A stretch of DNA of 64,000 bases, taken from Candidatus Omnitrophota bacterium (lineage in GTDB: Bacteria; Omnitrophota; Gorgyraeia; 2-01-FULL-45-10). This document shows, one piece after another, positions 2,330 through 42,278 of the stretch. Made by a program: the position numbers and the translations under genes. The notes beneath the pieces were generated by a model that was not told the origin of the DNA, did no database searches, and saw only the letters and a program-made list of their open reading frames with translations. Every line of letters starts with the position of its first letter. Position 1 is the stretch's first letter. The stretch covers positions 1,033 to 65,032 of the forward strand of contig JBAZNZ010000009.1 of assembly GCA_041648975.1 (NCBI GenBank). Direction: 5' to 3'.

Positions 2330-3621
2330 GAGTGTTAGTTGTCGGTTCAGGCGGAAGAGAGCACGCGCTCTGCTGGAAGATAGCCCAGAGCCTCCAATGC
2401 GCAAAACTATACTGCGCTCCCGGTAGCGGCGGCATATCCGAAGTCGCCGAGTGCGTAAATATAAAAGTCGATGACATAGACGCGCTGCTAAAATTCGCAA
2501 AAGATAAACATATCGACCTTACGGTTGTAGGCCCCGAAGCGCCGCTCGTCAAGGGCATAGTAGACGCGTTCAAAAAGGAAGGGCTTAAGATATTCGGCCC
2601 CTCGAAAGACCTGGCGGCCCTGGAAGGCTCTAAGGTATTCGCGAAAGAGCTGATGAAGAAACTGGGCGTGCCGACTGCGGATTTCAGGGTATTCAGTAAA
2701 TTCGACGAGGCCTTAAAGTACGTGACGGAGGTGAAAGAGCCGCCTGTAGTGATCAAGGCGGACGGACTGGCCGCAGGCAAAGGCGTCATGGTCTGCGGGA
2801 CGATCGAGGAAGCAAGGTTCGCGCTAAAGAGCATAATGGTCGACAGGGCCTTCGGCGCGTCGGGCGACAGGGTGATCGTCGAAGATTGCCTTGTCGGCGA
2901 AGAGGCTTCGATAATAGTCATCTCCGACGGGAAAAATATTGTGCCGCTCGCTTCGAGCCAGGACCATAAGAGGGTGTTCAACAGCGACAGGGGAGCCAAT
3001 ACCGGAGGGATGGGCGCTTATTCTCCCGCGCCGGTGGTCACCGGTGAACTTTTTAAGAAGATACTCGACACAGTGATACATCCCGTAATAAACGGCCTTT
3101 CCAGAGAAGGGAAGCCGTATGTCGGGGCGCTCTACGCCGGCATCATGCTGACGAAGAGCGGACCGTATGTCCTGGAGTTCAACGCGCGTTTCGGCGATCC
3201 TGAAACGCAGGCGATCATGCCCAGGTTGAAGTCCGACCTGCTTGACGCGCTGGACAAAGCCGTTACAGGCTCTCTCGGCGGCTATAAGATGGAATGGGAC
3301 CCGAGACCCTGCGTCTCCGTAGTGATGGCGTCGGGCGGCTATCCCGGGAATTATGATAAAGGCGTAGAGATACGCGGGCTGAACGACGCCAGGAAGCTTA
3401 AAGATGTGGCCGTCTTCCATGCAGGCACGAAGATGGGAAGCCGCTCTACCGACGGCAAGAACCTCTTCATCACGAACGGCGGGAGGGTTCTGAACGTAAC
3501 AGCGCTGGGCAAGGATATGTCAGGCGCTATAGAGACCGTATATAACGCCGTAAGGAAGATCAATTTTGATAAGATGCATTTCAGGACGGACATAGGGCAT
3601 CGGGCGCTTAATAAAGCATAA
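2326..3621 (+). CDS. purD: phosphoribosylamine-glycine ligase
   Basis: 431-aa ORF with ATP-grasp motifs and [15 protein letters not shown] start; ATGA overlap with the purM stop codon. Confidence 0.9.
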
Positions 3622-3640: not shown

Positions 3641-4132
3641 ATGTCCAACAAGACTAAAGTAGCGATCATAATGGGAAGCGACTCGGATTTACCGGTGATG
3701 ACCGAAGCGGCGAAGATACTGGAAGAGAATAAGGCCGGTTTTGAGCTGAAGATACTCTCGGCTCACCGTTCGCCGGACGACGCCGCGAAATTCGCGAAGT
3801 CAGCGCGTAAACGCGGCATCAAAGTCATAATAGCGGGCGCCGGCGGGGCCGCGCACCTGGCGGGCGTCGTCGCCAGCCACACTACGCTGCCGGTCATAGG
3901 CGTTCCGATGGAGACGAGGGAGCTTAAAGGCATAGATTCGCTTCTCTCGACTGTGCAGATGCCGTCCGGCATCCCTGTCGCTACAGTCACTATAGGAAAG
4001 ACGGGAGCGAAGAACGCCGCGATACTCGCTCTGCAGATATTGAGCCTGTCCGACAAGGGCGCGGAGAAGAGGCTCGATGCGCTGAAAAAGCGGCTGGTCG
4101 AAGATATAAGGAATAAGAATAAAAAACTTTAA
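3641..4132 (+). CDS. purE: N5-carboxyaminoimidazole ribonucleotide mutase (PurE)
   Basis: 163-aa ORF with [15 protein letters not shown] and AGGAAHLAG PurE signatures. Confidence 0.9.
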
Positions 4133-9054: not shown

Positions 9055-9906
9055 ATGCGCGAAGCCCTTTATTACGAAAAGCTCGATGCGCGGCGCGTCC
9101 ACTGCCACCTGTGCCCCAATGAGTGTGCGATCCCGCCGGGTGGGAGAGGGGCATGCGGCGTCAGGATGAACAAGTCAGGCGCGCTGTATACCGAAGTATA
9201 CGGGAAGACGACGGGCGTCGCCCTCGACCCGATAGAAAAGAAACCGCTGTACCGCTACCATCCCGGCGAACATATACTATCGCTGGGCACAAAAGGCTGC
9301 AATCTCCACTGCGATTTCTGCCAGAACTGGCACATATCGCAGGAGGTCGACAGCCCCACGCAGAATATCACATCCGAAGAAGTGATCGCGAAGGCTAAGG
9401 CCCTCGGCTCGTTCGGCATAGCCTATACCTATAATGAGCCGTTCATATGGTATGAATTTGTCCTCGACACCGCGCGCCTGGCGAAGAAGGACGGATTAAA
9501 GAACGTGCTTGTGACGAACGGGTATGTCAATATGGGGCCTCTCGAGGGCATGCTTCCGGTCATAGACGCGATGAACATAGACCTGAAGTCGATCGACGAG
9601 AAGTTCTATTCTAAGATATGCAGGGGGAGCCTCAAGCCGGTCCTGGATGTAATAAAGGCCTCGGCTAAACGTTGCCATGTAGAACTTACCAACCTTCTGA
9701 TACCTACCCTTAACGATTCCGAAGCGGATGTCGCGAAGATGGTCGACTGGATATATACAAACCTGGGGAGCGATGTGCCCCTTCACCTGTCCCGTTATTT
9801 CCCGTGCTACAGGATGAACCTGCCGCCGACGTCTTTAACGTCACTGAGCAGGGCGGAATCGATAGCGAAGAAGAAATTGAAGTATGTGTATGTGGGGAAC
9901 GTCTGA
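9055..9906 (+). CDS. AmmeMemoRadiSam-system-type radical SAM enzyme
   Basis: CNLHCDFCQNW radical-SAM CX3CX2C motif plus an N-terminal Cys cluster; 283 aa. Confidence 0.75.
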   Translation: MREALYYEKLDARRVHCHLCPNECAIPPGGRGACGVRMNKSGALYTEVYGKTTGVALDPIEKKPLYRYHPGEHILSLGTKGCNLHCDFCQNWHISQEVDSPTQNITSEEVIAKAKALGSFGIAYTYNEPFIWYEFVLDTARLAKKDGLKNVLVTNGYVNMGPLEGMLPVIDAMNIDLKSIDEKFYSKICRGSLKPVLDVIKASAKRCHVELTNLLIPTLNDSEADVAKMVDWIYTNLGSDVPLHLSRYFPCYRMNLPPTSLTSLSRAESIAKKKLKYVYVGNV

Positions 9907-9912
9907 CGCTTT

Positions 9913-12317: not shown

Positions 12318-12407
12318 ATGCCTTGCGGACGTAAGCGTAAAAGAGCGAAGATGGCGAAGCATAAAAGAAAAAAAAGGATGAGAAGAGACCGCCATAAAAA
12401 GAAATAA
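12318..12407 (+). CDS. bS22-like ribosomal small protein (29 aa, extremely basic)
   Basis: AGGAGGTG Shine-Dalgarno sequence 7 nt upstream of the ATG. The peptide MPCGRKRKRAKMAKHKRKKRMRRDRHKKK resembles the mycobacterial/Bacteroidetes bS22 sequence ([23 protein letters not shown]...) as recalled from memory. Absent from the ORF track because it is under 60 aa. Confidence 0.5.
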   Translation: MPCGRKRKRAKMAKHKRKKRMRRDRHKKK

Positions 12408-12472
12408 GTCGTAAGCTGTAAGTTGTAAGTTTTAAGTTAAAAGCTTACAACTTACGACTTACAGCTTATAAC
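12408..12472. repeat. word-built hairpin (GTAAG/CTTAC words)
   Basis: GTCGTAAGCTGTAAGTTGTAAGTTTTAAGTT | AAGCTTACAACTTACGACTTACAGCTTA; directly follows the bS22-like stop codon. Confidence 0.65.
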
Positions 12473-12498
12473 TAAACCTCTGTTTAAGAGTCACTATA

Positions 12499-14034
12499 GT
12501 GCGCGCGACAAAATATATATTTTCCCTGGCAGTTCTCATTACACTTCTAATATCCACGGTCGATTTAGATGCTGTAATAGACATTTCCGCCAAAAAAAAT
12601 CCGCTCTCGTTATGGGAAACGGTCGTCCAGAAGGTCCGCCCGACGAATGCGTTTTCCAGGTCGCTAGCCCATTTCACGATGGGCGTTATCAACGATAACG
12701 AGTCCAAGCCCGAAGACGCTATCCGGGAATACAAAGAGGCGATAGAGTCCGAGCCCGGCGTAAGCTACCTGCATACGAGGCTCGCCATAGATTATATACT
12801 TCTTAAGAAAGAAGACGACGCCGTCGAAGAATTGAAGACGGCCAAATCGCTTGACCCCTCCGACGTGAGGCCGAAGTTCCTCCTGGCGTTGACATATACG
12901 TCGCTGGGTATGCTTGAAGAGGCGCGCAGAGAGTACGAAGAGATAGCGCGGCTCGACCCGAACTCCATATGGGCGCTAAGTTCTTTGGCGGACATATTTG
13001 TATTACAGAAGAAGATGGCTGAGGCTGCCGCTGTATACGAGAAGCTTCTCGAGGATAAGAAAGACTCCGCCGTCCTGTATTTCAACCTTGCGGTCATCTA
13101 CTCGAGGATGGAGAGGACCGACGAGGCCATAGAGATGCTTAAAGAGGCGGTCTCGGTAGACGGCGAATACGTCGAGGCGTATATAGGGCTCGGCATATTA
13201 TATGAGATGAAAAAAGACCTCCCCGGCGCCATCCGTAATTTCGAAACGGCTCTTGAGAAAGATCCTCTGAATACGAAGCTATATCACCACATCGGCATCT
13301 TATACTATAAAGATAAGAAGGTAGACAGGGCGATAAAGAAATACGAGCTCTTGCTGAAGAATAATCCCAACGATCTCGACGCTTACATAGAGCTTTCGAA
13401 TATATATCTGGGCGAAAAGAGGCCGCAGGACGCGATAAAGGCGCTCGACGCCGCGTTGGAGAGGGGTTCGAAGGAAGCGAGCCTGTATATAGCCCTGGGA
13501 TTTACGTATACTGTCCTGGAGAGATACGATGAGGCGCTGAAGTTCTATAACACGGCGCTTGAGATAGATAGAGATGACCCGAAAGTCCATTTTTATCTCG
13601 GAGTCCTTTATGAAAAGAGAGGCGACAAAGAATTGGCCGCCGGAGAACTCAGGGAAGCGATAAGATTAGACCCGGATTTCGCGGACGCCTGTAATTACCT
13701 TGGGTACATGCTGGTAGAAAAGGGGGGAGCCTTGGACGAGGCCATCCTCCTTATAAAGAAGGCGCTGGAGACAGATCCCGATAATGCCGCTTATATAGAT
13801 TCTCTCGGATGGGCGTATTTTAAGAATGGCATGACGGATGAGGCGCTTACGGAATTGGAGAAGGCGTTAAAGCTGGAACCGGGCGATCCCGAAATAAGGG
13901 ACCATCTCGGTGAGGCGTACCTTAAGAAAGGTATGAAGGGTAGGGCAAGGGAAGAGTGGAAGAAGGCGCTCGAACTTAAACCCAGCAAGGATATGCAGGA
14001 TAAAATTAGAGAGAAGCTGAGAAAGGCAAGGTAG
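12499..14034 (+). CDS. secreted TPR-repeat protein
   Basis: N-terminal signal-like hydrophobic segment followed by about ten tetratricopeptide repeats. Confidence 0.7.
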   Translation: MRATKYIFSLAVLITLLISTVDLDAVIDISAKKNPLSLWETVVQKVRPTNAFSRSLAHFTMGVINDNESKPEDAIREYKEAIESEPGVSYLHTRLAIDYILLKKEDDAVEELKTAKSLDPSDVRPKFLLALTYTSLGMLEEARREYEEIARLDPNSIWALSSLADIFVLQKKMAEAAAVYEKLLEDKKDSAVLYFNLAVIYSRMERTDEAIEMLKEAVSVDGEYVEAYIGLGILYEMKKDLPGAIRNFETALEKDPLNTKLYHHIGILYYKDKKVDRAIKKYELLLKNNPNDLDAYIELSNIYLGEKRPQDAIKALDAALERGSKEASLYIALGFTYTVLERYDEALKFYNTALEIDRDDPKVHFYLGVLYEKRGDKELAAGELREAIRLDPDFADACNYLGYMLVEKGGALDEAILLIKKALETDPDNAAYIDSLGWAYFKNGMTDEALTELEKALKLEPGDPEIRDHLGEAYLKKGMKGRAREEWKKALELKPSKDMQDKIREKLRKAR

Positions 14035-14140
14035 GTTACGTAATGTTACGTAAAGTTAGTGAATGTTACGTAAGGTTACAAAAGTCTACTAACCTTACGT
14101 AACCTTAATTAACCTTCACTAGCCTTATGTAACCTTTTAA
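14035..14140. repeat. word-built hairpin (TTACGTAA/GGTTAC words)
   Basis: GTTACGTAATGTTACGTAAAGTTAGTGAATGTTACGTAAGGTTAC ... ACCTTACGTAACCTTAATTAACCTTCAC...; lies between the TPR gene and tkt-N. Confidence 0.65.
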
Positions 14141-14152
14141 TAGCGAGACCAC

Positions 14153-14990: not shown

Positions 14991-15056
14991 TTGAGTTATT
15001 TGCGTTTGTTGCGTTCAACGCAATAAACGCAATGAACTCAATGAACGCAATAAACC
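14991..15056. repeat. word-built hairpin (AACGCAA/TTGCGTT words)
   Basis: TTGAGTTATTTGCGTTTGTTGCGTT | AACGCAATAAACGCAATGAACTCAA; lies downstream of tkt-N. Confidence 0.65.
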
Positions 15057-18741: not shown

Positions 18742-19680
18742 ATGACATCCATAGAATTAACTGCGCCTGCTAAAGTAAACCTCGTCCTAAAGATCCTCGG
18801 CAAGCGAAAAGACTCCTATCACAATATCTATACTCTATTTGAGAAGATATCCCTTTGCGACCGTATACGGATAACAAAGATTCGGGAAGGCATTATCGTC
18901 TCTTCGGATAGATTTATTACGCGTAGCCCTAAAGATAACCTGGTGTATAAAGCCGCCAAGCTGTTTCTGGGGCGCCATAAGCTGAAATACGGCGTAAAGA
19001 TAGACATTAAGAAGAAGATACCGATAGCGGGCGGCCTTGGCGGAGGCAGTTCGGACGCCGCAAGTGTCCTTATGGGAATGGACAGGCTGTTCGGGTTGAA
19101 GATAGGCAGAGCCGGATTGTTAAGTCTTGCCGCCAGGCTGGGTTCCGACGTCCCGTTCTTTATCCTGGACGTACCGTTTGCCGTCGGCAGGGGCCGGGGA
19201 GAGCGTCTGGAGAAGGCTGATGTAAGAAAACGCCTCTGGCACTTGATAATCTATCCCGGTTTCAAGGTATCCACAAAGGATGTTTACGAGGCTTTTGACG
19301 CCCATCAAGAGGCCTTGGTCCCTCGCCGGGGCTCGGGATCAAGGCCTGAGCATTTGCCGAAGGCCTTGACAACACGCCATTGCGGTGATAGAATAATCCG
19401 TCAATCGGCGGGTTCTATGGACTTTGGCGAGATCGAATCTATGCTTTACAACGACCTTGAAGAGACGGTTATAGCTAAAAAAGAGACGATCGGTAAGGTA
19501 ATAGAACGCTTGGCTTCTTCTCTAAACAAGAAAGCGATTGTATCGGGAAGCGGGCCAAGCGTATTTTGTCTCTATAGGGACGGAAAGGAGGCGCTCGCCG
19601 CTAAAAGAAGGCTTTTGGGTAGCCTGCCGGCGCCTGAACGGGCAAGCTGGCAGGTATTTGTCGCGAAAACAGAGAAATAA
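18742..19680 (+). CDS. ispE: 4-diphosphocytidyl-2-C-methyl-D-erythritol kinase
   Basis: LTAPAKVNLVLKILGKR N-terminus and GHMP-kinase motif PIAGGLGGGSSDAA. The ATG at 18742 is preferred over the longer upstream ORF-track extension. Confidence 0.85.
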   Translation: MTSIELTAPAKVNLVLKILGKRKDSYHNIYTLFEKISLCDRIRITKIREGIIVSSDRFITRSPKDNLVYKAAKLFLGRHKLKYGVKIDIKKKIPIAGGLGGGSSDAASVLMGMDRLFGLKIGRAGLLSLAARLGSDVPFFILDVPFAVGRGRGERLEKADVRKRLWHLIIYPGFKVSTKDVYEAFDAHQEALVPRRGSGSRPEHLPKALTTRHCGDRIIRQSAGSMDFGEIESMLYNDLEETVIAKKETIGKVIERLASSLNKKAIVSGSGPSVFCLYRDGKEALAAKRRLLGSLPAPERASWQVFVAKTEK

Positions 19681-19775: not shown

Positions 19776-20270
19776 ATGGAGATCACGGAGATAAAGATTT
19801 TTATGAAAGAAGGGCAGGACAAGAAGCTAAAGGCTTACGCGACGCTTACGCTCGATAACGCGTTCGTCGTCAGGAACGTGAAGGTCATAGAAGGCACAAA
19901 AGGCCTCTTCGTCGCTATGCCTTCCAGGAAGATAAAAGAGCCTTGCCCTAAGTGCGGTTTCAGGAATGCGGTGAGGAGCAAATACTGCAACCAGTGCGGC
20001 GGTAGCCTCCCGCAGAGCCACGAGCCCAGGCCGGTTCAGCCGGGAGAAGATATGGCAAGACAGTCGGAGCACAAGGATATCGCGCATCCGATAACCGCGG
20101 AATGCAGGGACTACATACAGAAGAAAGTCCTGGATGCTTACGAGAATGAAAAAACGAAAGGTCCTTCGACTCGACCGAGCGCTCCGTCAACCGTTCCACA
20201 GAGCGCCCCGCAGCACAGGGGCCCTCACGCTATCGGAGACGTCGAGGAGGATAACGATATAGAGTTATAA
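19776..20270 (+). CDS. spoVG: SpoVG-family protein with an inserted C4 zinc ribbon and extended C-terminus
   Basis: MEITEIKIF...GLFVAMPSRK ... DIAHPITAE match the SpoVG core. Roughly 42 extra residues carrying CPKC...CNQC lie between those blocks. An AGGAG ribosome-binding site sits 10 nt upstream of the ATG at 19776. Confidence 0.75.
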   Translation: MEITEIKIFMKEGQDKKLKAYATLTLDNAFVVRNVKVIEGTKGLFVAMPSRKIKEPCPKCGFRNAVRSKYCNQCGGSLPQSHEPRPVQPGEDMARQSEHKDIAHPITAECRDYIQKKVLDAYENEKTKGPSTRPSAPSTVPQSAPQHRGPHAIGDVEEDNDIEL

Positions 20271-20321
20271 GACAGTTCAGCAAGTCAGTTTGCAACATCC
20301 CGAGGCCTATGGCCGAGGGAT

Positions 20322-20546
20322 AAAATTTTTCGCTCCACCACAGGGCAGCTTAACGGCAGGCGCCCTTTCGGCTAATTTTGCCGTCAAGAGTATTTGAGTT
20401 TGATAGTAGTTATATATTTTTTTATCTTGCCGTTATGGATACAACGGTTTAAAGAGTTTAGATTATGGTGCAGCCTCGGCAAAATATGACGCCTCAAGGG
20501 CTACCTGCCGTTATCTGCCCTTGCAGTCAGAGTGAAGAAATTTTAC
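20322..20546 (+). mobile_element. MITE-like element copy A (~225 bp, ~65-bp terminal inverted repeats)
   Basis: Left end AAAATTTTTCGCTCCACCACAGGGCAGCTTAACGGCAGGCGCCCTTTCGGCTAATTTTGCC; right end is its inverted complement ...GGCAAAATATGACGCCTCAAGGGCTACCTGCCGTTATCTGCCCTTGCAG..GTGAAGAAATTTT. Confidence 0.6.
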
Positions 20547-20778
20547 TGGAGAGGCGGGGCGGCTGGTAAGACGTTATCAAAATTTACGGCTCCCGCCTGC
20601 CAGCGAGAGACTGCTTCAGGCGGGCAGGCAACCCACGTGGCCGGTTGCCGTCGTCGCCATAATAGAGCGAAAAAATTTTGTCTGGGAGGACAAGGAAAAT
20701 TTCGCTCCAGCAACGACCCAAAAGTTCTGCCATCTGACGGGCCGAAAAATTATATCGGAGGAACAAGTTGGATGGGAT

Positions 20779-20852
20779 TGCCCGGTGGTGTAATGGTAGC
20801 ACACCAGCCTTTGGAGCTGTGGGTCCTGGTTCGAATCCAGGCTGGGCAACCA
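20779..20852 (+). tRNA. tRNA-Gln (anticodon UUG)
   Basis: Cloverleaf folded by eye. Acceptor stem TGCCCGG/CTGGGCA with U1-A72 as in bacterial tRNA-Gln; anticodon loop CTTTGGA; T-arm GGTTCGAATCC; 3' CCA encoded. Confidence 0.85.
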
Positions 20853-20974: not shown

Positions 20975-22243
20975 ATGAAAAACATAACAGCGATTATACT
21001 TGCGGCGGGAAGAGGGACGAGGATGAAGTCCGACGTACCTAAGGTCCTTCATAAGATACTGGGGCGTCCTATCATCTCTTATGTGCTTGACGCTGTCGGG
21101 GACGCCGGTATTTCCAAGACGGTGACCGTCGCCGGATTCGGTATCGACAGACTTAAAGAGTTGTTAGGGGAAGAGACTAAAGTCGTTATCCAGAGGAAGC
21201 TCCTCGGCAGCGGCGACGCGGTCAAGACGGCAAAGAGGGTCCTTGGGAAACATCCCGGCGATATCCTCGTTATCTGCGGAGATACGCCGCTTATCAAGCC
21301 CCGGACGATAAAGGATATCATCGAAAGGCATAAGGCCGCCGGGGCAAGCGCCACCCTTCTGACGGTCAGGTTAAAAGATCCCGCAGGCTACGGCAGGATA
21401 ATACGGTCGAACGCCGGCAAGATAGTAAAGATCATGGAAGAGGAAGACGCCCATTCTTACGGCGAAGTTGTTAACGAAATTAACGTCGGCACTTATTGTT
21501 TTAAGGCAAAAGACCTTTTTGAAGCGCTATCCGGTATAAGGCCCAATAACAGGAAGAAAGAATTTTTCCTGACCGACGTAATAGAAATTCTGGGTAAAAA
21601 AGGTTTGCCGGTAGAAGCGGTTTCGGCCAAAGACGCGAGCGAGATGATAGGCATAAATACGAGAAAAGACCTGGCTGTTGCTACGGCTACAGTCAAGAGC
21701 AGGATATTGAACGAGCTTATGGACGCAGGCGTTACGATAGAAGACCCGCTATCGACCGTAATATATCCGGGCGCGAAGATCGGCCGCGATACGGTCATTT
21801 ACGCAAATACATATATAGAATCGGATGTGGAGATAGGCGCCTCCTGCCTTATAGGCCCTTTTACGCGGCTAAGAAAAGGCGTGCGTATAGGCAACCGTGT
21901 TGAGGTGGGGAATTTTGTGGAGCTTGTCAGGACAGAAGTGGGCGACGATACAAAGGTAAAACATCATACTTATCTTGGAGATACTAAGTTAGGGAAGTCA
22001 GCCAATATCGGCGCCGGCGTCATTACGGCAAACTACGACGGGAAGAATAAGAATAGGACCATTATAGAAGACGGAGCTTTCATAGGCGTCGGGGCCAGGC
22101 TGATAGCGCCCCTGTCGATCGGCAAAGGCGCAGTCGTCGGAGCAGGGGCAGTCGTGCCTAAGAACCACGATGTCCCGAAAGGCGCGACGGTGTTGGGCGT
22201 GCCGGCGAGGATATTAAAAAAAAGGTTACATAACGTTACGTAA
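20975..22243 (+). CDS. glmU: bifunctional UDP-N-acetylglucosamine pyrophosphorylase / glucosamine-1-phosphate N-acetyltransferase
   Basis: AIILAAGRGTRM nucleotidyltransferase motif followed by a C-terminal left-handed beta-helix hexapeptide-repeat domain. The ATG at 20975 is preferred over the TTG at 20945. Confidence 0.85.
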   Translation: MKNITAIILAAGRGTRMKSDVPKVLHKILGRPIISYVLDAVGDAGISKTVTVAGFGIDRLKELLGEETKVVIQRKLLGSGDAVKTAKRVLGKHPGDILVICGDTPLIKPRTIKDIIERHKAAGASATLLTVRLKDPAGYGRIIRSNAGKIVKIMEEEDAHSYGEVVNEINVGTYCFKAKDLFEALSGIRPNNRKKEFFLTDVIEILGKKGLPVEAVSAKDASEMIGINTRKDLAVATATVKSRILNELMDAGVTIEDPLSTVIYPGAKIGRDTVIYANTYIESDVEIGASCLIGPFTRLRKGVRIGNRVEVGNFVELVRTEVGDDTKVKHHTYLGDTKLGKSANIGAGVITANYDGKNKNRTIIEDGAFIGVGARLIAPLSIGKGAVVGAGAVVPKNHDVPKGATVLGVPARILKKRLHNVT

Positions 22244-22325
22244 GGTTAGCGAAGGTTACGTAACGTTAATAAAACTCAAGCAACCTTACATAACCTTAAT
22301 TAACTTTCACTACCATTACGTAACA
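22214..22325. repeat. word-built hairpin (TTACGTAA words) overlapping the glmU 3' end
   Basis: AAGGTTACATAACGTTACGTAAGGTTAGCGAAGGTTACGTAACGTTAAT ... AACCTTACATAACCTTAATTAAC..CATTACGTAACAT; the glmU stop codon TAA is part of a TTACGTAA word. Confidence 0.65.
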
Positions 22326-22336
22326 TAAAAAGGGGT

Positions 22337-25490: not shown

Positions 25491-25570
25491 AGTTTAGTTA
25501 ATTGCGTTTATTGGGTTTGTTGGGTTAACGCAATGAACGCAAAAAACGCAACGAACACAATAAACTAACA
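25491..25570. repeat. word-built hairpin (AACGCAA words)
   Basis: AGTTTAGTTAATTGCGTTTATTGGGTTTGTTGGGTTAACGCAATGAACGCAAAAAACGCAACGAACACAATAAACTAACA; shares the word AACGCAATGAACGCAA with the hairpin at 14991. Confidence 0.65.
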
Positions 25571-26352: not shown

Positions 26353-26356
26353 ACAG

Positions 26357-26498
26357 CTTTGTGTAAAGTTTTATGTGTAATGTGTAATGTTGGTGTAATG
26401 TAGCTATGTGTAATGGAAAATTCGCTCTGTCTAATCTTTTTACATTAAACAATAACCCATTAAACTCGCTTTACACATTACACATTTAACATTACACA
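26357..26498. repeat. word-built hairpin (GTGTAATG/CATTACAC words), ~140 bp
   Basis: GTGTAAAGTTTTATGTGTAATGTGTAATGTTGGTGTAATGTAGCTATGTGTAATGG ... CTTTACACATTACACATTTAACATTACACAAA; lies between rplI and dnaB. Confidence 0.65.
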
Positions 26499-26501
26499 AA
26501 A

Positions 26502-27893
26502 TTGTTAGAGAGTGCTATGGCTCAAGAGTCGATAGAAAAGGTCCCGCCGCAAAACGTAGAAGCCGAGATAGCGGTCATCGGATCCATGCTCTTAGATCAC
26601 GACGCTATTTCGCAGGCCGTAGAGATATTGAATTCGGATTATTTCTATAAAGAATCCCACAGGAAATTATACTCCGCGATGTTAAGGCTCTTCGACGAGA
26701 ACAAGGCCGTCGACATCATAACGGTCATGGAAGAGCTCAAGAAGACAAACTCACTTGATGACGCAGGCGGCCCGGCCTACATATCGAGCCTCGCGTCGGC
26801 CGTCCCTACCACAGCAAATTTTGTCCATTACGCTAAGATAGTCAAGGAAAAGGCCCTTCTCAGAAACCTCATTAATACAGCCACCCAGATAGTCACCGAA
26901 TGTTATGATACCACCATGGACGCCGATACGCTTGTGGACAAGGCGGAACAGCGCATATTCGACGTTACATCCAAGAAAGTGGAATCCAGGTTCGTCTCCC
27001 TTAGAGAAGTCATAAAAGATTCCATAGAGACCATAGACAACCTTTACCAGAGAAAAGAGAATATTACCGGCATAGCTACCGGCTACAGGGAACTCGATAT
27101 GAGGACCGCCGGGCTGCAGCCCTCTGACCTGGTGGTTATAGCGGGCCGTCCTTCGATGGGTAAAAGCGCGCTGGCTTCATGCATAGTGGAGCATGCGGGC
27201 GTTATCGAAAAAGAGCCGGTCGCGTTCTTCAGCCTTGAAATGTCCAAAGAACAGCTCGTCCAGAGGATGCTATGTTCGCACGCGAGAGTCGACGCGCATA
27301 AGGTCAGGACGGGTTTTCTGTCCCAGGCGGATTGGCCGAGGCTCGTCAGCGCGGCCGGAAAGTTATCGGAAGCGCCTATCTACATAGATGATTCACCGGG
27401 CATAACGGTCCTGGAGCTGAGGGCTAAGGCACGGCGGCTAAAGGCCCAGTTCGATATTAAATTGATAGTGCTCGATTATCTCCAGCTTATGCAGGGGCCC
27501 GCTAGATCCGAATCGAGGCAGCAGGAGATATCCGAGATATCCAGGTCGCTGAAGGCTATAGCCAAAGAGTTGAAGGTGCCGCTCATCGCTATAAGCCAGT
27601 TGTCGCGCGCTGTGGAGCAAAGGTCCGACCACAGGCCCCAGCTTTCCGACTTGAGGGAGTCGGGCGCTATTGAACAGGATGCCGACCTGGTGCTGCTTCT
27701 CTTGAGAGAGGAGTATTACAACCCGACCGATGAGAACAAGGGTATTGCGGAGGTCATAATAGCTAAGCAGAGGAACGGCCCAGTAGGGAGCCTGAACCTC
27801 GCGTTTCTCGGAGAGTATATGCGTTTTGAGAACATTGCCCAGAAGTCGGAAGATTTTGTCGACGTGGATATGGAAAAGATGGAGAGAGTGTGA
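26502..27893 (+). CDS. dnaB: replicative DNA helicase
   Basis: 463-aa ORF with Walker A GRPSMGKSA and RecA-like motifs; no intein seen. Confidence 0.9.
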   Translation: MLESAMAQESIEKVPPQNVEAEIAVIGSMLLDHDAISQAVEILNSDYFYKESHRKLYSAMLRLFDENKAVDIITVMEELKKTNSLDDAGGPAYISSLASAVPTTANFVHYAKIVKEKALLRNLINTATQIVTECYDTTMDADTLVDKAEQRIFDVTSKKVESRFVSLREVIKDSIETIDNLYQRKENITGIATGYRELDMRTAGLQPSDLVVIAGRPSMGKSALASCIVEHAGVIEKEPVAFFSLEMSKEQLVQRMLCSHARVDAHKVRTGFLSQADWPRLVSAAGKLSEAPIYIDDSPGITVLELRAKARRLKAQFDIKLIVLDYLQLMQGPARSESRQQEISEISRSLKAIAKELKVPLIAISQLSRAVEQRSDHRPQLSDLRESGAIEQDADLVLLLLREEYYNPTDENKGIAEVIIAKQRNGPVGSLNLAFLGEYMRFENIAQKSEDFVDVDMEKMERV

Positions 27894-30208: not shown

Positions 30209-30215
30209 GGGCGTA

Positions 30216-30247
30216 GTTATAAGTCGTAAGTTTTAAGTTGTAAGATA
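30216..30247. repeat. short word-built hairpin (GTAAG words)
   Basis: TTATAAGTCGTAAGTTTTAAGTTGTAAGATAA; lies downstream of bamA. Confidence 0.45.
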
Positions 30248-30256
30248 AAAAAATAG

Positions 30257-33237: not shown

Positions 33238-34041
33238 ATGACAAGAATAGGTCTGGTCGCAGGTTCAGGTAAGCTTCCTTCTGTTTTTGCCCGCGTGGCG
33301 AAAGACAAAGGGGATATTGTGATAGCGTTCGCCCTTAAAGGGGTGACCGATTCGGGTCTGGAAGAGCACGTCCACAAGATACACTGGTTCGAATGGGGCG
33401 ATCTCAAGAAGGCTGTCCTATTGCTGGCTGCCGAGAGGATAAGGAAGATCGTAATGCTGGGCAAGGTAAAGAAAGAGACGGTCTTTAAAGACGACAAGAA
33501 TCTTGACGCCGACGCAAAGTCGATCCTGAATAAGATCGACGGAAAGCAGGACTACCAGATACTTAACGGGATAGCCGATTTTCTGGGTAAATTCGGCGTT
33601 GAGGTCCTCGATTCCACCACATATCTTAAAGACCTTATACCCTCTAAGGGCCTTCTTACCAGGAGAGAGCCTACAAAAAAGGAGCTGGAAGATATAGAAT
33701 ACGGTAGTTCTGTCGCAAGAACGATGTCCATGTTCGATATAGGCCAGACGATCGCCGTGAAAGACAGGTCTGTCATCGCCGTGGAAGCCGCTGAGGGGAC
33801 GGATGAGACGATCCTCCGCTCCGGCTCCCTTGTCAAGGGCGGATTCGTCGTAGTGAAAGTCGCGCGTCCTAACCAGGATATGCGGCTCGATGTGCCGCTT
33901 ATCGGGCCGGATACTCTTATGACTCTTATAAAGGCAGGCGGCAGCGTTCTCGCCCTTGAGGAAAAAAAGACCATCCTTATGGATAAGGATGGTCTTGTAA
34001 AGCTCGCCGACGAAAACGGAATATCCGTCGTAATAATTTAG
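33238..34041 (+). CDS. lpxI: UDP-2,3-diacylglucosamine hydrolase LpxI (DUF1009 family)
   Basis: 267-aa ORF with N-terminal IGLVAGSGKLP; located between fabZ and lpxB where lpxI/lpxH normally sits. Confidence 0.65.
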   Translation: MTRIGLVAGSGKLPSVFARVAKDKGDIVIAFALKGVTDSGLEEHVHKIHWFEWGDLKKAVLLLAAERIRKIVMLGKVKKETVFKDDKNLDADAKSILNKIDGKQDYQILNGIADFLGKFGVEVLDSTTYLKDLIPSKGLLTRREPTKKELEDIEYGSSVARTMSMFDIGQTIAVKDRSVIAVEAAEGTDETILRSGSLVKGGFVVVKVARPNQDMRLDVPLIGPDTLMTLIKAGGSVLALEEKKTILMDKDGLVKLADENGISVVII

Positions 34042-35564
34042 AGCAGCGGCAGGTACTTCTTGATCTCGTAGCCCGTTATCTGCGTCCTGTAGTCCTCCCA
34101 CTCCTTCTTCTTATTTATCAGGAACCTTGTGAATATATGCTCTCCGAGCGCCTCTTTTACCAGGGCGCTCTTTTCAGTCTCCGCTATGGCTTGATAGAGA
34201 TTCCCCGGCAACGCTACGAGGCCCCTGTGTTCCCGCTCGGACATCTCCATCTTGTATATGTTCGGCTCGACCGGCTCAGGCGCCTTATATTGTTTCTCTA
34301 TGCCGTCGAGTCCGGCGGCCAGCATGACGGCGAAGGCCAGATACGGATTGGCTGACGGGTCCGGGCACCGCAGCTCAGCCCTCGTTGCCTTCTCGTTCCC
34401 GGGCCTGTATACCGGCACCCTTATAAGCGCCGTCCTGTTCTTTTGCGCCCATGACGAGTATACCGGCGCCTCATATCCCGCGACAAGCCTCTTATAAGAA
34501 TTGACCCATTGCGCGGTAAGGGCGCATATCTCTCTGGAGTGTTTTATCTGCCCGGCTATGAAATGTTTCGCGATGGCCGACAGGTGGTGCTTGTCGTCTC
34601 TGTCATAAAAAGCGTTCTTGTCGCCTTTGAACAAGGATTGATGGACGTGCATACCGCTCCCGGCCACGCCGTATATGGGCTTAGGCATGAAGGTAGCGTA
34701 GACGCCATGAGCCTTTGCCACTTCCTTTATGCAGTATCTGGCCGTTATGATATTATCGGCCATAGTTAAAGCCTTGCTGTACCTTAAGTCTATCTCGTGC
34801 TGGGACGGGGCGACTTCGTGGTGGCTCGCCTCCATGGGTATGCCCATCTTTTCCAGTATCCCGACGGTCTTGTTCCTCAAGACGTCCGCGATATCATTAG
34901 GGATGAGCTCAAAATATGTCCCTTCGTCCAGGGTCTCAGGAGCTTTCTCGGATTTAAAGTAGAAATATTCAAGCTCCGGGCCTATGTAAAGGGTCAGCCC
35001 CATCTTTTCGGCCCTATCAAGCTGCCTTTTCAGCGCGTATCTGGAGTCGCCGGCATAAGGCGTCCTATCGGGGTTCAGTATGTCGCAGAATAACCTTGCT
35101 ACCGGTTCGGCCGATCCCTCCCACGGCAGTATCTGGAACGTCGCCGGGTCAGGCATCGCTATGATATCGGATTCCTGCGCCTCGGCAAAGCCCGTCACCG
35201 AAGAGCCGTCGAATCCCTTGCCGTGGTAGAGCGCCTCCTCGAGGTCCCTCGGCGTTATAGAAACGCACTTCAATATGCCGAGGATATCGACGAACCATAA
35301 TTGTATGGTGTTGATGTTATTGTCCTTTACCATCTTAAGGACTTTGGCTTCGCTTCCTTTTCCGCGCAGCATCTTCTTCATATCAGCCTCTTTATGGTGG
35401 CTTTCGCCCTTTTTAAGTTTTGCTGCCTCATCGTTGTCGATGATATATTGCCTGCCCGCCCTGGTAGCTTTTATCGTGCCCTTATTTATCCTGTCTATGA
35501 CGGCCTGTCTCGATATACCCATCACCTTGGCCAATTGTGTAGGGCTTATGTATCCTTGTGCCAT
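34038..35564 (-). CDS. glnA: type I glutamine synthetase fused to an N-terminal excisionase/MerR-like HTH DNA-binding domain
   Basis: N-terminal MAQGYISPTQLAKVMGISRQAVIDRINKGTIKATRAGRQYII (HTH_17 pattern), then a GS beta-grasp and catalytic domain (KPIYGVAGSGMHVHQSL). The ATG at 35564 with AAAGGAG ribosome-binding site is preferred over the TTG at 35585, which lies inside the operator palindrome. Confidence 0.8.
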   Translation of the reverse strand: MAQGYISPTQLAKVMGISRQAVIDRINKGTIKATRAGRQYIIDNDEAAKLKKGESHHKEADMKKMLRGKGSEAKVLKMVKDNNINTIQLWFVDILGILKCVSITPRDLEEALYHGKGFDGSSVTGFAEAQESDIIAMPDPATFQILPWEGSAEPVARLFCDILNPDRTPYAGDSRYALKRQLDRAEKMGLTLYIGPELEYFYFKSEKAPETLDEGTYFELIPNDIADVLRNKTVGILEKMGIPMEASHHEVAPSQHEIDLRYSKALTMADNIITARYCIKEVAKAHGVYATFMPKPIYGVAGSGMHVHQSLFKGDKNAFYDRDDKHHLSAIAKHFIAGQIKHSREICALTAQWVNSYKRLVAGYEAPVYSSWAQKNRTALIRVPVYRPGNEKATRAELRCPDPSANPYLAFAVMLAAGLDGIEKQYKAPEPVEPNIYKMEMSEREHRGLVALPGNLYQAIAETEKSALVKEALGEHIFTRFLINKKKEWEDYRTQITGYEIKKYLPLL

Positions 35565-35578
35565 AATATCTCCTTTGC

Positions 35579-35621
35579 TTGACAATTGTCAAGTCTATCA
35601 TACAGCTTGTCACTTGTCAAG
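35579..35621 (-). promoter_or_regulatory. putative operator of the HTH-GlnA fusion gene: perfect palindrome TTGACAATTGTCAA plus two further TTGACAA/CTTGTCA half-sites
   Basis: On the plus strand: GCTTGACAATTGTCAAG at 35577-35593, immediately 5' of the ribosome-binding site, and CTTGTCACTTGTCAAG at 35606-35621. Confidence 0.55.
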
Positions 35622-35633
35622 TGTAAAGTGGGG

Positions 35634-35860
35634 AAAATTTTTCTGCTCCACCACAGGGCAGCTTAACGGCAGGCGCCCTTTCGGCTAATTTTGCCGTCAA
35701 GAGTATTTGGGTTTAGTATTAATAATAAATTTTTCACCTTGCTGTTATGGAGACAGCGGCTTAAAAAGAGTTTGTGTTGCGGTGCGGCCTCGGCAAAATA
35801 TAACGCCTCAAGGGCTACCTGCCGTTATCTGCCCCTGCAGTCGGAGCGAAGAAATTTTAT
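35634..35860 (+). mobile_element. MITE-like element copy B
   Basis: Near-identical ends and internal hairpin to copy A; located upstream of the glnA operator. Confidence 0.6.
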
Positions 35861-36360
35861 TGAGGTGGCAGGTTAGAAGCATCTTCGGCAATCGCCCAAA
35901 AGTTCCCTGCCCGCCGGCATGAATCTAAGTCGGGCAGGCGGGCGCCATCTGAGACAGGGGTGAAGAAATTTTACTGGGGGGCAGGTTAAAAGTTGCTTCG
36001 GCTAGCGCCCGAAAGCACTGCCACCTGGGGAGCGAAAAATTTTCCAGGTGGAGCGAGTTGGAAATTTTTACAGCTGGGTAATGCTGTATGGCCACGAGGC
36101 CATGTGGGTTGAGCCGTAAATTTTGCTAAGATTATAGCTATTACCCAAAGCATATTGAAGCAGGGCACCCATAAGAACTGAATAAAGCGGATTAATTTCT
36201 ACAAAACTGATCATTCTTGAAAGCAAAATTAGGCGAAGCCCACGGCCGAGATGGCCATTGGGGATAGGGTGTAAAAATTTCATAAGGAGCGAATATTTTC
36301 AGTGCTCACATAACGAGGCTTAGGTTTGAGCTAAATACGTAAAAATTTCATAGTAGCGAA

Positions 36361-37488
36361 TTATTGAAGCAGAGGAAGGATGGATTTGGCGGCGCGGAGG
36401 CGCGCGCCGGGTCCGCCTAAAGAAACCTTGACGGCCTGCAGGTCGCTTAGCATGGCGGCCATCTTGCCGGCGTTTTCCATTATCTCGACGGACTTGGCGG
36501 CTATATTAGCCGGCGTTGCGTCGTACTGCAAGAGTTCCGGCACCACTTCTTTTCCGGCGATGACATTGACGAGACCCACGAAGGGAGACTTCATGACGGC
36601 CTTATATAATATATATGTCAGGAAGCTTGTCTTATACATCATGACAAAAGGCGTCCCTATTATGGCGGTCTCAAGAGTTGCCGTCCCCGACGCTACTATT
36701 GCGAAGTCGGAGGCGCCCACGATATTATATGTATCGCTTGTAGCGATCCTGACGTCGAGGCCTGAATTGCCGACCGCTTCTTCGTAGAAACGTAAGGGAA
36801 GGCCGGGATGGCGCGCTATTATGAATTGCGCGCCTTTCAGTTTGTCGTTCAGGATGCCTGCGGCGGACAGCATCACCGGAAGGAAAGACCTTACCTCGAG
36901 AGAGCGCGAGCCGGGCAGGAGGGCGATCGTCTTCTTTCCTTTTAAAAGATCGTACGCCTTCATTACGTCATCCTTGGGCAGAGTCATCTTAACTATATCG
37001 ACTAGGGGATGGCCCACAAATTCCGCGTCCACTCCGTATCTCTTGTACAGCTCCTCCTCGAACTTGAAAAATACGATCATCTTCTTTACGCATCTCTTAA
37101 TTATCTCGATCCTGTCGAGCCCCCACGCCCATATCTGCGGGCTTATGTAGTATACGACGGGTATCGACCTCTTCTTCAGGGCTTTTGCCAGTCTCAGGTT
37201 AAAGCCGGGGTAGTCGACCAGTATGGCCAGGTCCGGCTTTTGGGCTTCTATCTTCGACATGACCGCCTTATAGGCTTTTCCGACGGTAGCTATGTTCTTT
37301 ACCACCTCGACCGCGCCGACCAACGCCAGTTTCGATATGTCGAAGATGACTTCAACGCCGGCCTCTTTGGAGAGTTCGCCGCCGGGCCCGAAAAAACGCA
37401 AGCCCTGCCGCATAGATCTTAAGTCTTTTACGAGATTGGAAGCATGTAGGTCGCCGGACGGTTCTCCGGCCACTATGAGGATATTCAT
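36361..37488 (-). CDS. lpxB: lipid-A-disaccharide synthase
   Basis: 375-aa ORF with N-terminal MNILIVAGEPSGDLHASNLVKDL. Confidence 0.85.
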   Translation of the reverse strand: MNILIVAGEPSGDLHASNLVKDLRSMRQGLRFFGPGGELSKEAGVEVIFDISKLALVGAVEVVKNIATVGKAYKAVMSKIEAQKPDLAILVDYPGFNLRLAKALKKRSIPVVYYISPQIWAWGLDRIEIIKRCVKKMIVFFKFEEELYKRYGVDAEFVGHPLVDIVKMTLPKDDVMKAYDLLKGKKTIALLPGSRSLEVRSFLPVMLSAAGILNDKLKGAQFIIARHPGLPLRFYEEAVGNSGLDVRIATSDTYNIVGASDFAIVASGTATLETAIIGTPFVMMYKTSFLTYILYKAVMKSPFVGLVNVIAGKEVVPELLQYDATPANIAAKSVEIMENAGKMAAMLSDLQAVKVSLGGPGARLRAAKSILPLLQ

Positions 37489-38411: not shown

Positions 38412-38616
38412 GCTATTTCCTCAGGTACACAAGGGTGGATTATATCACTAATGTACCGCTTTTGCAAGAAGTTAACCAATAATCTATGTTAGACCTACGA
38501 GGAGTGCCCCGCCGATTCTTTCACTCGGGGCGGGATCCCGCCCCGAGTCTTATTCCGGGCGGGGATTACTTAGGCTCGTCACACCTCGTAGGTGATAGGT
38601 CATCTTCAAATTTGCC

Positions 38617-38767: not shown

Positions 38768-40591
38768 ATGAATAAATACGCGAGGCTCGTAAGGTTCGTT
38801 ATACCGCACGCATGGGAGCTTGTGCTGGCCGCTGTCTGCATGGTCATCACATCCGCATTCGGCGGCGTATCCATAAGCATGATAATACCGCTTGTGGATA
38901 AGGTAATAGCCGGCAAGAAGATAATGGTGCCGGGAAACGTGCCTTTGCCTGCCCCGATCCAGTACCTTTTAGATGCAGCTAACTCTATGTCAGCCATGGA
39001 GTTGTTGAACAGCATGATGATAATTGTCACGGTGCTGTGGCTATTAAAGAACTTCTTCGGATTCTACCAGACATATCTGATGAACGACGTATCCCAGCGC
39101 GTCATAAGGGATGTCAAGAACACCATATACAAGAAATTTCTCACCCTTTCCATGGATTTTTATTCAAGGAACTCTACCGGCAAATTGATGTCCAGAGTGA
39201 CATACGACGCCGCTATAATAAGGGATTCCATATCCTCGGGCCTCACGGACCTTTTTTACCAGCCTATCCAGCTCATCATCTACATGTCGATGTTGATAGG
39301 GATAAAGGTATACTTCTCCATATCCTGGGTGCTTATAGTCATAAGCATAGGGATATTCCTGCTGGTGGTATACCCGGTGATGCTGATAGGCAAGAAACTT
39401 AAAGCCATATCCAAGAAATCTCAGGAGAAGATGGGGGATATAACCACGACCCTGCACGAGACGATATCGGGCGTGCGTGTCGTAAAGGCCTTCTCCATGG
39501 AAGATTATGAAGCGAAAAAATTCGCCGACCAGAATAACTACTTCTATAAGCTTGAAATGAAATCGGTGAAGAGGATGGCCGTTGTCAGCCCGTTGACGGA
39601 ATTCGTCGGGATGATCTGCGTTGCGGTGATCCTGTGGATAGCGGGTAAGGAGATAGTCTCGGGTGCGTTGTCTGCGGGCGCTTTTGTCACGTTCCTCGCA
39701 TGCATGCTCTCCATATTGAAGCCAATCAAGCGTCTCACGAACGTATACAATATAAACCAGCAAGCGCTTGCGGCCGCCGACAGGATATTCGAGACTCTCG
39801 ACGCGAACCCTTCAGTAATGGAGAAGCCCGGGGCCGTAGAATTGCCAAGGATAAGAGAGCGCGTGGCATTGAGACACGTCTATTTCAGGTACGAGGATAA
39901 GGATATATTAAAAGATATAAATATTGAGGTGAAGGTCGGCGAGATCGCGGCGTTTGTGGGCCCAAGCGGCGTCGGCAAGACTACGCTGGTCAATCTGGTC
40001 CCGCGTTTTTATGATGTTACTGAGGGGCAAATCCTGGTCGACGGCATAGATGTCCGGGATTGTACGCTGAAATCGCTCATGGGCCAGATAGGCATCGTTA
40101 CGCAGGAGACGATATTATTTAATGATACGGTCGCCTCGAACATAGCCTACGGCACCAGGAGTTTCGATAAGGACGGCGTGATGAGGGCCGCCAAGATAGC
40201 TAACGCCCACGATTTTATAATGAGGATGCCAAAGGGTTACGAGACGATGATCGGCGAGCGCGGGTTCAGGCTTTCAGGCGGCGAGAAGCAGAGGCTTGCC
40301 ATAGCCAGGGCCGTCTTCAAAGACCCGCCGATCCTGATACTCGATGAGGCGACCTCCCAGCTCGATACGGAGTCCGAGATACTGGTCCAGGAGGCCATAG
40401 ACAGGATGATGAAGGGCAGGACGGTCTTCGTCATCGCCCACCGCCTGAGCACGATAAAACACGCCACATCAATATATGTATTGGACGCCGGCAGGGTGGT
40501 CGACAAGGGCTCGCATGAGGAGCTTATCGCGAAAGAGGGCCTCTATAAGCGCCTTTATGACATGCAGTTCAGGGATAATGTGTTGAGGTAA
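38768..40591 (+). CDS. msbA: lipid A export ABC transporter MsbA-like (fused permease and ATPase)
   Basis: Six-transmembrane N-terminal domain plus an ABC nucleotide-binding domain (GPSGVGKTT, LSGGEKQR, ILILDEATS); 607 aa. Confidence 0.8.
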   Translation: MNKYARLVRFVIPHAWELVLAAVCMVITSAFGGVSISMIIPLVDKVIAGKKIMVPGNVPLPAPIQYLLDAANSMSAMELLNSMMIIVTVLWLLKNFFGFYQTYLMNDVSQRVIRDVKNTIYKKFLTLSMDFYSRNSTGKLMSRVTYDAAIIRDSISSGLTDLFYQPIQLIIYMSMLIGIKVYFSISWVLIVISIGIFLLVVYPVMLIGKKLKAISKKSQEKMGDITTTLHETISGVRVVKAFSMEDYEAKKFADQNNYFYKLEMKSVKRMAVVSPLTEFVGMICVAVILWIAGKEIVSGALSAGAFVTFLACMLSILKPIKRLTNVYNINQQALAAADRIFETLDANPSVMEKPGAVELPRIRERVALRHVYFRYEDKDILKDINIEVKVGEIAAFVGPSGVGKTTLVNLVPRFYDVTEGQILVDGIDVRDCTLKSLMGQIGIVTQETILFNDTVASNIAYGTRSFDKDGVMRAAKIANAHDFIMRMPKGYETMIGERGFRLSGGEKQRLAIARAVFKDPPILILDEATSQLDTESEILVQEAIDRMMKGRTVFVIAHRLSTIKHATSIYVLDAGRVVDKGSHEELIAKEGLYKRLYDMQFRDNVLR

Positions 40592-41185: not shown

Positions 41186-41214
41186 TTGCAAAATAGGGTC
41201 GGACAGCGTATAAT
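41186..41214 (+). promoter_or_regulatory. rpsB promoter TTGCAA-17-TATAAT
   Basis: TTGCAAaatagggtcggacagcgTATAAT, about 78 nt upstream of the rpsB ATG. Confidence 0.55.
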
Positions 41215-42255: not shown

Positions 42256-42278
42256 AGTCAACTTTACGAGGAGAAACG

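Follow-up and report, generated by a model that had tools for sequence, protein, structure and literature searches.

A family of long palindromic intergenic repeats that abut stop codons in a lineage of Candidatus Omnitrophota

Three copies of a non-coding palindromic element occur in intergenic positions of a stretch of 64,000 nucleotides (hereafter, the window) from a Candidatus Omnitrophota genome, and they raise the question of what kind of sequence they represent. The first-pass annotation of the window had described them as MITE-like elements, with a structured non-coding RNA (ncRNA) as the alternative. The phylum Omnitrophota comprises uncultured bacteria whose cells are small and whose genomes are compact. 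The assignment of the host, a Candidatus Omnitrophota MAG, agrees with the best matches of its MsbA and PurM proteins, which are Candidatus Omnitrophota MAG proteins; one 100% identical protein comes from an NCBI MAG, and ENA ERZ27247363, NCBI GCA_028715235.1, and Logan SRR8542065 contain the same strain (99.7-100% identity). The window contains housekeeping genes only, i.e., pur genes, glyA, ftsH, spoVG, glmU-like, prs, ribosomal proteins, dnaB, bamA, lpx genes, glnA, msbA, rpsB-tsf-pyrH-frr, der, and dinB/lexA-like. The neighbors first named for the three copies were confirmed, with tRNA-Gln at 20779-20852, glnA at 34038-35585 (- strand), msbA at 38768-40591, and rpsB at 41293-42147. In the precomputed Pfam annotation, no transposase is found among the called genes of the window, as had been stated before, and the same holds for an integrase, a RAYT, and a Y1/HUH enzyme.

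The three elements, here designated family A, were recovered by BLASTN and by repeat detection at the positions and in the common orientation (+ strand) originally given for them (Table 1). The term "near-identical" applied to them at that time is too strong, since their overall identity is only 84-88% (copy A vs. copy B, 88.1% over 227 nt, E 2e-77; copy A vs. copy C, 84% over 225 nt, E 2e-60). Family A copies are 222-227 bp long and non-coding, with 2-7 stops per frame and a longest open stretch of 41 codons. The unit consists of a ~60-pair hairpin formed around a variable, AT-rich core, which measures ~95 nt rather than the ~60 bp first proposed. The long inverted repeat, on the other hand, was borne out. 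Copy A folds into a single long hairpin on both strands, with predicted RNA energies of -80.4 kcal/mol (z -5.4) for the + strand and -84.7 kcal/mol (z -7.6) for the - strand, and none of 200 shuffled sequences reached either value (0/200 for each strand); the inverted-repeat architecture is therefore real and far above chance.

Within this hairpin, the termini AAAATTTTTCGC and GCGAAGAAATTTT pair with each other, and the arms pair over ~50 additional positions. The left terminus of copy B has one extra T (TTTTTCTGC). The base of the stem is formed by an A-tract/U-tract pair, and the internal mismatches of the arms are conserved. Conservation is distributed very unevenly along the element. Among the seven full copies, identity is 99.3% in the left arm and 95.7% in the right arm vs. 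73.5% in the core; the termini are 91-95% identical, and the 7-10 nt adjoining them 69-82%. The few variable columns of the arms are singletons or unpaired positions. The small hairpin in the core, whose arms had been thought to differ between copies in a compensatory way, shows one-sided transitions only (C->T, A->G), which retain pairing via G:U or give a perfect stem in a one-shifted register (GCTGT/ACAGC).

Table 1. Coordinates of family A copies, related modules, and other intergenic hairpins in the window.
Feature	Position in window	Strand	Remarks
Copy A	20322-20546	+	52 nt past spoVG stop, upstream of tRNA-Gln
Copy A, left terminus AAAATTTTTCGC	20322-20333	+	
Copy A, invariant left arm	~20341-20383	+	
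Copy A, variable core	~20384-20476	+	small hairpin at 20429-20448
Copy A, invariant right arm	~20477-20523	+	
Copy A, right terminus GAAGAAATTTT	20534-20544	+	
Copy B	35634-35860	+	between glnA promoter/operator and lpxB 3' end (both genes -)
Copy C	40590-40812	+	first AA = end of msbA TAA stop (40589-40591)
Family 2 element	1024-1307	+	purC-purM; family A termini and core motifs, arms differ but are still complementary
Family 2 right-half remnant	20564-20679	+	nested 37-nt GC-rich hairpin, ~20592-20628
Family 2b element (family 2 variant)	36062-36280	-	co-oriented with lpxB
Family 3 long hairpin module	40875-41173	+	arms CTAAGCCGACGTTATGATGAGCACATTGAAAATATT / AATATTTTCAGTGCTCACATAACTAGGCTTAGG; bounds A5T4 / A5T3
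Family 3 module, right part	36281-36351	+	adjoins lpxB stop
Small hairpin module (~70 nt)	40811-40882	-	starts AAAATTTTTCGCT on - strand; A/T boundary common with copy C
Two tandem small hairpin modules	35859-36043 (35859-35972, 35973-36043)	-	first module with nested 37-nt GC-rich hairpin, ~35906-35945
'Tail' after copy A, ACTGGAGAGGCGGGGCGGCTGGTAAGAC	20547-20574		degenerate left part of small module
Degenerate small-module variant	20681-20752		upstream of tRNA-Gln
56-nt GC-rich twin hairpin	1085-1140, 38529-38565		also at loci L002, L004, and L005
Second-class hairpins	12400-12475, 14023-14144, 15008-15055, 22220-22335, 25493-25565, 26353-26505		
Second-class hairpins, continued	30214-30251, 42163-42267, 42862-42935, 44227-44333, 53174-53230		

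A multi-copy, independently transcribed gene for a structured ncRNA would be in keeping with the great stability of the predicted structure and with two core motifs, TCAAG and a TTATGG hairpin, which are conserved across the families described below. However, the tests for an RNA gene gave no support to this alternative. Rfam at gathering thresholds returned only two tRNAs in the window and no match to the element, and a search at E≤1 of window positions 40560-41300 gave nothing relevant. Promoter and terminator scans detected the native rpsB promoter only, and nothing conserved within the element. The covariation expected from the first description is not significant among the three copies, where observed values equal shuffled ones and 34 of 38 arm pairs never vary; likewise, all measures of covariation within family A equal those of shuffled controls. 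Fold energies are similar on both strands, the - strand being slightly better in 9 of 11 modules. The extra G:U pairs of the + strand arise only from the G+T-rich core, and pairing in the arm helices is Watson-Crick almost throughout, as would be uncommon in an RNA helix this long under selection. On these grounds, an independent ncRNA gene for family A is unlikely, and, as the copies also sit inside repeat arrays at positions that are not kept in relatives, we consider this alternative highly improbable. A candidate IHF-like site in the TCAAG motif was also discarded; in a reading of the sequence, the register of the consensus is mismatched.

A search for further copies had been proposed as a check, and it was carried out with an invariant 21-mer of family A (AACGGCAGGCGCCCTTTCGGC). 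Five further occurrences were found on four contigs of the JGI metagenome Ga0265297. These loci have only the repeats in common with the window and thus represent different chromosomal sites. Family A therefore has at least eight copies in one population, all at different loci. The eight copies have eight different left flanks, with a sharp boundary at the same nucleotide, and their pairwise identity is 82-91%, except for one closer pair. Copy B and the copy at locus L003 are 97.8% identical over 272 nt, indicating that one of them is a recent duplicate. Outside this population, the 21-mer gave no match in 185,579 GTDB representative genomes and none in the viral contigs of IMG/VR, and a distant BLAST search against plasmids revealed no match to the element.

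Family A belongs to a larger group of hairpin modules, a superfamily whose units are delimited by AAAATTTT; neither this relationship nor the proximity to stop codons is part of the first-pass annotation. Short, A/T-rich termini (AAAATTTTTCGC ... GCGAAGAAATTTT) and core motifs recur throughout the group, whereas the arms differ from family to family and nevertheless still pair. All four long intergenic regions of the window (~1020-1330, 20270-20780, 35585-36361, and 40591-41293) are mosaics of such modules, each bounded by A4-5T3-5, and every module analyzed folds into a long hairpin. Families 2 and 2b, exemplified by two elements of the window (Table 1) and by positions 2074-2299 of locus L005, resemble family A in their termini, in the arm/core junction CTAATTTTGnnnTCAAG, and in a core hairpin centered on TTATGG. 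The family 3 module in front of rpsB has an MFE of -124 kcal/mol (z -10.8) and ends 13 nt before the conserved rpsB promoter. The small modules of ~70 nt bear the canonical AAAATTTTTCGCT terminus on the opposite strand and adjoin the long elements in a tail-to-tail arrangement. The 'tail' that follows every family A copy corresponds to the first 21 nt of such a module (GCTGAGGGGGCAGGTTAAAAG on the + strand, for the module next to copy C). A resemblance to the left terminus at 56445-56457 (TAAAATTTTTCGT, with AAAATTTTTCGT at 56449), the only AAAATTTT of the window outside the repeat arrays, was rejected as a coding coincidence at a stop/start gene overlap.

Comparison between the families is informative about the arms. 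In a covariance-model alignment of family 2 with family A, 17 of 47 arm and terminus pairs have double changes that keep pairing and 3 are broken; since the alignment of families A, 2, and 2b was fitted to structure, 17 is an upper estimate. Each family's hairpin is also predicted independently of that alignment, and asymmetric internal loops are common to the three families. As judged from these sequence comparisons, the compensatory pattern between families shows that complementarity of the arms is maintained. There are three candidate causes, namely a single DNA-binding protein that fits both ends, a folded single-stranded DNA (ssDNA) substrate, or an mRNA hairpin. Concerted change of the two ends of a transposon would yield the same picture of double changes in families A, 2, and 2b.

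Smaller GC-rich hairpins of 37 and 56 nt are nested in the modules, with precise boundaries, no duplication, and clean pairs of empty and filled copies. The 56-nt twin hairpin (CCCCGCCC..GGGGCGGGG TCCCGCC..GGCGGGA) is REPIN-like. Its copy in the purC-purM spacer interrupts the family 2 element without target duplication, and the family 2 copy of L005 represents the empty site. The 37-nt hairpin (CCTGCCCGCC-N16-GGGCAGGCGGG), which is also present at ~2330 of L005, is nested in small modules or family 2 remnants and absent from sister copies, again without duplication. Both nested hairpins fit the description of REPs, and they look like true REPs/REPINs.

To place the arrays in their genomic context, three species with syntenic loci and 76-83% amino acid identity (MsbA) were compared. 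The glnA-lpxB junction is 776 bp in the window vs. 60-90 bp in these relatives, and the msbA-rpsB junction is 702 bp vs. 70-150 bp. As these junctions are short in the relatives and empty of the elements, the repeats represent insertions specific to the lineage of the window. The relatives retain the glnA operator-like sequence and the rpsB promoter (TTGCAAAATAGGG...TATAAT), which border the arrays on either side; thus, the repeats were added between a stop codon and the control region of the next gene. A superfamily profile search of ~70 kb of the relatives' DNA gave no match. The relative represented by L012 (81% amino acid identity) carries, precisely at this msbA stop, another type of module that also starts with AAAAATTTTTCGC. 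The purC-purM spacers of the relatives (117-135 nt) are unrelated and have hairpins of their own, and they provide no readable empty site for family 2. In a related Omnitrophota species (L041, ENA ERZ27247683), an unrelated repeat of its own (CCATYGCAATGGCCCAA...) and GC-rich hairpins occur at ~2975-3155 and 3865-4001, immediately past the stops of purB and purC, so that hairpin modules behind stop codons may be habitual in the clade as a whole.

Among strains, no insertion polymorphism of the elements was detected in ERZ27247363, GCA_028715235.1, and SRR8542065, and the elements are identical wherever they are spanned. These assemblies reach copies A and C, which are both present, and copy B is covered by none. 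The only indel found concerns a repeat type other than family A: a hairpin block of ~145 nt of the GATTAAG type, at 7064-7208 of L037 (NCBI JAQUSE010000026.1), is absent at window 9903-9911, between radical-SAM and SurA-like genes, where the flanks are 99.6-99.7% identical and the upstream stop is TAA vs. TGA. The GATTAAG unit belongs to a second class of intergenic hairpins, built from degenerate units of 7-10 nt, of which 3-5 in tandem make up one arm and their reverse complement the other (Table 1). The repeat units include GTAAGnT, GTTACGTAAn, AACGCAAT, TGTGTAA, and GATTAAG, and several types recur at 2-3 loci. These hairpins lack a U-tract and are located between housekeeping genes that run in the same direction. 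The GHMP-kinase gene differs as well (window 19314-19364 vs. L034 4010-4086), encoding 312 aa in the window and 354 aa in the NCBI MAG; the alignment points to a tandem duplication of ~126 nt, in frame, in one of the strains. In addition, several public contigs end in or beside repeats, i.e., L002 (ends at 4042), L006 (starts at window 36157), and L045 (ends 80 nt past spoVG), indicating that the repeats fragment metagenome assemblies of the lineage.

In several respects, family A corresponds to a prokaryotic MITE as defined in PMC10969869 (section 2.1). It is shorter than 500 bp, has no coding capacity, carries terminal inverted repeats (TIRs), and occurs in multiple dispersed copies, and arms of 96-99% identity combined with a core of 73% are a MITE-family pattern. 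The empty orthologous sites in three related species and the 97.8% identical pair at two loci are compatible with mobility; the lack of insertion polymorphism among the near-identical strains counts against it. The description as MITE-like thus stands as far as it concerns a small, non-coding, multi-copy element with long TIRs that is absent from the relatives' junctions and clustered or nested with other repeats. A cognate autonomous insertion sequence (IS) with matching ends was looked for in the window, at L005, in ~110 kb of related loci, and among the GTDB representatives, and none was found. Neither the window nor L005 has a transposase, RAYT, or integrase among its annotated genes, and neither a longer element carrying these ends nor a termini pair at IS-like spacing was detected. 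The termini pattern AAATTTTTCGC N185-215 GCGAARAAATTT matched 20 sites in the 185,579 GTDB genomes, all by chance: each is a single occurrence in the coding-like sequence of an unrelated taxon, without the ability to form a long hairpin. The unit AAATTTTTCGC...GCGAAGAAATTT is flanked by TA at either end in five of the seven complete copies, A4T4 being an alternative reading of these flanks. The flanking TA / AAAATTTT is palindromic and extends the inverted repeat, so that a target-site duplication is indistinguishable from the repeat itself, and the empty orthologous sites, found only in species 76-83% identical, are too diverged for reading a duplication.

The right flank of every family A copy is the 'tail' of a small module and never random DNA; therefore, the copies may spread as composites or by recombination. 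Spread might even have occurred with no dedicated mobility at all, if mosaic blocks were copied by illegitimate or homologous recombination, gene conversion, or tandem duplication between A/T-bounded modules. Besides the right flanks, whole mosaic blocks common to loci agree with such a process, as window 35634-36326 matches L003 over ~640 nt, and the additional small module of the window relative to L003 looks like the product of unequal exchange. Near-perfect arm identity could reflect conversion. Nevertheless, eight different left flanks with a boundary at one and the same nucleotide, insertions placed exactly at the stop codons of unrelated genes, and the precise bounds of nested insertions all argue against it, and we regard recombination as the sole means of spread as improbable.

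One regularity of the family concerns stop codons. Six of the eight family A copies begin 0-9 nt past the stop codon of a co-oriented gene, and four of the eight overlap the TAA of bona fide genes (msbA, argG, hypC, and dapB) by their first AA. The same register is found in two of three family 2 copies and in the L012 module. It is therefore worth asking whether the element is a host-maintained, cis-acting RNA, i.e., a 3'-UTR hairpin under selection at each locus behind the stop codon, with mobility being secondary. Such a hairpin could end transcription as an intrinsic or bidirectional terminator, be cut by RNase III, block 3' exonucleases, or slow down terminating ribosomes; the last of these effects has reportedly been observed for REPs of E. 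coli that lie within 15 nt of a stop codon (Liang, Rudd and Deutscher 2015). Apart from the register, this reading is consistent with the A-tract/U-tract pair at the stem base and with the one-sided transitions of the core hairpin, which retain G:U pairing on the + strand. The invariance of the arms against a core that has drifted to 73% points to constraint after insertion or to very strong selection at the level of the element. Known MITEs (ERIC and Correia) act likewise (PMC10969869). On the other hand, the same junctions function without such an element in related species, copy B is antisense to both of its neighbor genes, the arms have no tolerance of G:U and neither strand is energetically preferred, and no terminator-like site was called. 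Selection on a host RNA as the primary explanation hence appears doubtful.

A second regularity concerns the strand. Each of the eight copies is placed on the purine-rich strand, the one that has positive GC and AT skew and carries most genes. Copy B is also placed on this strand, though its neighbor genes are on the opposite one. Such uniform placement is unexpected for a symmetric TIR transposon unless selection acts. Indeed, a plain MITE model has most difficulty in accounting for arm conservation and one-strand orientation, and the long arms, the kept mismatches, and the ~17 double substitutions between families fit a hairpin-recognizing (ssDNA/RNA) mechanism at least as well as a transposase that binds double-stranded TIRs. 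Accordingly, one alternative is a giant REPIN-like element moved as ssDNA by an HUH/Y1 enzyme (RAYT or IS200/IS605-type TnpA) or by another hairpin-recognizing recombinase, which would recognize the folded hairpin with its conserved bulges and copy it without target duplication and on only one strand relative to replication. Such an element would account for the placement of all eight copies, for pairing rather than sequence being kept between families A, 2, and 2b, for the asymmetric internal loops that they share, and for the nearly pure Watson-Crick arms. It would also fit the BIME-like mosaic arrays and the small GC-rich REP-like hairpins inserted into them without duplication. However, no RAYT or TnpA gene was seen in ~170 kb, a GTAG-type REP head is absent, the unit is 5-10 times as long as a REP, and TA flanks are present. 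Furthermore, local skew in the window tracks gene orientation, so replication direction is not established by it. Overall, movement as ssDNA seems a possible but rather unlikely origin.

The two preceding readings can also be taken together, in that family A may be not a classical TIR transposon but a very large element recognized as a hairpin, either a 'giant REPIN' moved as ssDNA or a domesticated post-stop-codon RNA hairpin. A dedicated protein would then read the sequence-invariant arms and the conserved bulges. The placement of the copies on one strand, their register at stop codons, and the compensatory evolution between sister families would all follow from this, in a phylum of ultra-small bacteria with compact genomes. 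We put this forward only tentatively, as a minority view.

Among known systems, several bear a partial resemblance to family A. ERIC/IRU elements are imperfect palindromes of 127 bp in Enterobacteria and Yersinia, with orientation-dependent effects on host mRNA (PMC10969869). As in family A, nearly the whole element is one imperfect palindrome, which is non-coding, multi-copy, transcribed, and intergenic, often at gene 3' ends (PMC10969869). Family A differs in its unrelated sequence, its length of about twice that of ERIC, its Omnitrophota host, and its invariant arms around a drifting core; moreover, it belongs to a modular, array-forming superfamily and abuts stop codons. The Correia/NEMIS elements of Neisseria and TA-targeting MITEs (RUP and Nezha) are similarly TIR-bounded, non-autonomous, and TA-flanked, with an AT-rich core. 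Transcripts of Correia-type elements form hairpins that are cut by RNase III, and the elements cluster and insert into each other (PMC10969869); pneumococcal BOX/RUP/SPRITE clusters show comparable clustering and mutual insertion (PMC10969869). MITE TIRs are usually 4-30 bp long, and those of Correia-type elements ~26 bp, whereas the arms of family A are far longer, with ~100 of 225 nt paired. In contrast to Correia-type MITEs, the TA flanks of family A are a candidate duplication only, no parent IS is known, and all copies are on one strand.

REP/BIME/REPIN-RAYT systems share with family A palindromic mosaic arrays behind stop codons, compensatory conservation of hairpins, and the lack of a clear target duplication. 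The arrays of the window are extragenic mosaic clusters at gene 3' ends, as are BIMEs, since those containing copies A, B, and C each start at or near a stop. Yet, REPs are GC-rich palindromes of 20-40 nt with a GTAG head, and family A is a headless unit of 225 nt with AT-rich ends and core; nor does the gene annotation of the window and L005 include an associated RAYT. Integron attC sites are imperfect palindromes as well, starting at or just past the stop codon of the upstream gene, with conserved outer boxes, a variable interior, a structure that is kept, and strand specificity. The boxes are different, however (AAAATTTTTCGC in family A, RYYYAAC/GTTRRRY in attC), and the neighbors of family A are core housekeeping genes in conserved synteny, without integrase or cassettes. 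Overall, family A is no artifact; it adds a new family, with a few unusual details, to an ordinary and already known class of bacterial repeats.

The reading that we prefer, with moderate confidence, is that family A is a non-autonomous, non-coding palindromic repeat, MITE-like with REPIN/BIME-like traits, which has proliferated as DNA within one lineage of Omnitrophota and whose transcript would probably serve as a 3'-end hairpin. An enzyme encoded elsewhere in the genome would recognize the bipartite ends, i.e., the terminal 12-mer and the invariant arms, and the element would be inserted at TA within A/T-rich sequence. In a compact genome, harmless sites would exist only between a stop codon and the ribosome-binding site or promoter of the next gene, and insertion into the TA of a stop codon would rebuild TAA because the element begins with AAA. 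Each insertion would supply new A4T4 ends that are themselves targets, and arrays would thereby grow into the A/T ends of resident modules, which would explain the pile-up of modules into arrays with common A/T boundaries. Once inserted, the element would be transcribed with the upstream gene, and its ~60-pair stem, flanked by the A-tract and the U-tract, would most probably serve as a 3'-end hairpin, whether as a terminator, an insulator, a nuclease barrier, or a processing site.

Literature searches revealed no description of any repeat element in Omnitrophota, and what makes family A notable is the phylum of its host, together with the register at stop codons, the uniform strand, and the invariance of the arms. 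The hairpin modules enlarge some gene junctions ten-fold and precede essential promoters, namely those of rpsB, tRNA-Gln, and glnA. The invariant 43-nt arm is a specific lineage marker, as its 21-mer matched only this population across the metagenome, GTDB, and viral collections. The strict orientation on one strand would offer a handle on how such elements move. If the arms are selected at each locus, family A would offer a tractable case in which a selfish repeat has been converted into a signal at 3' ends.
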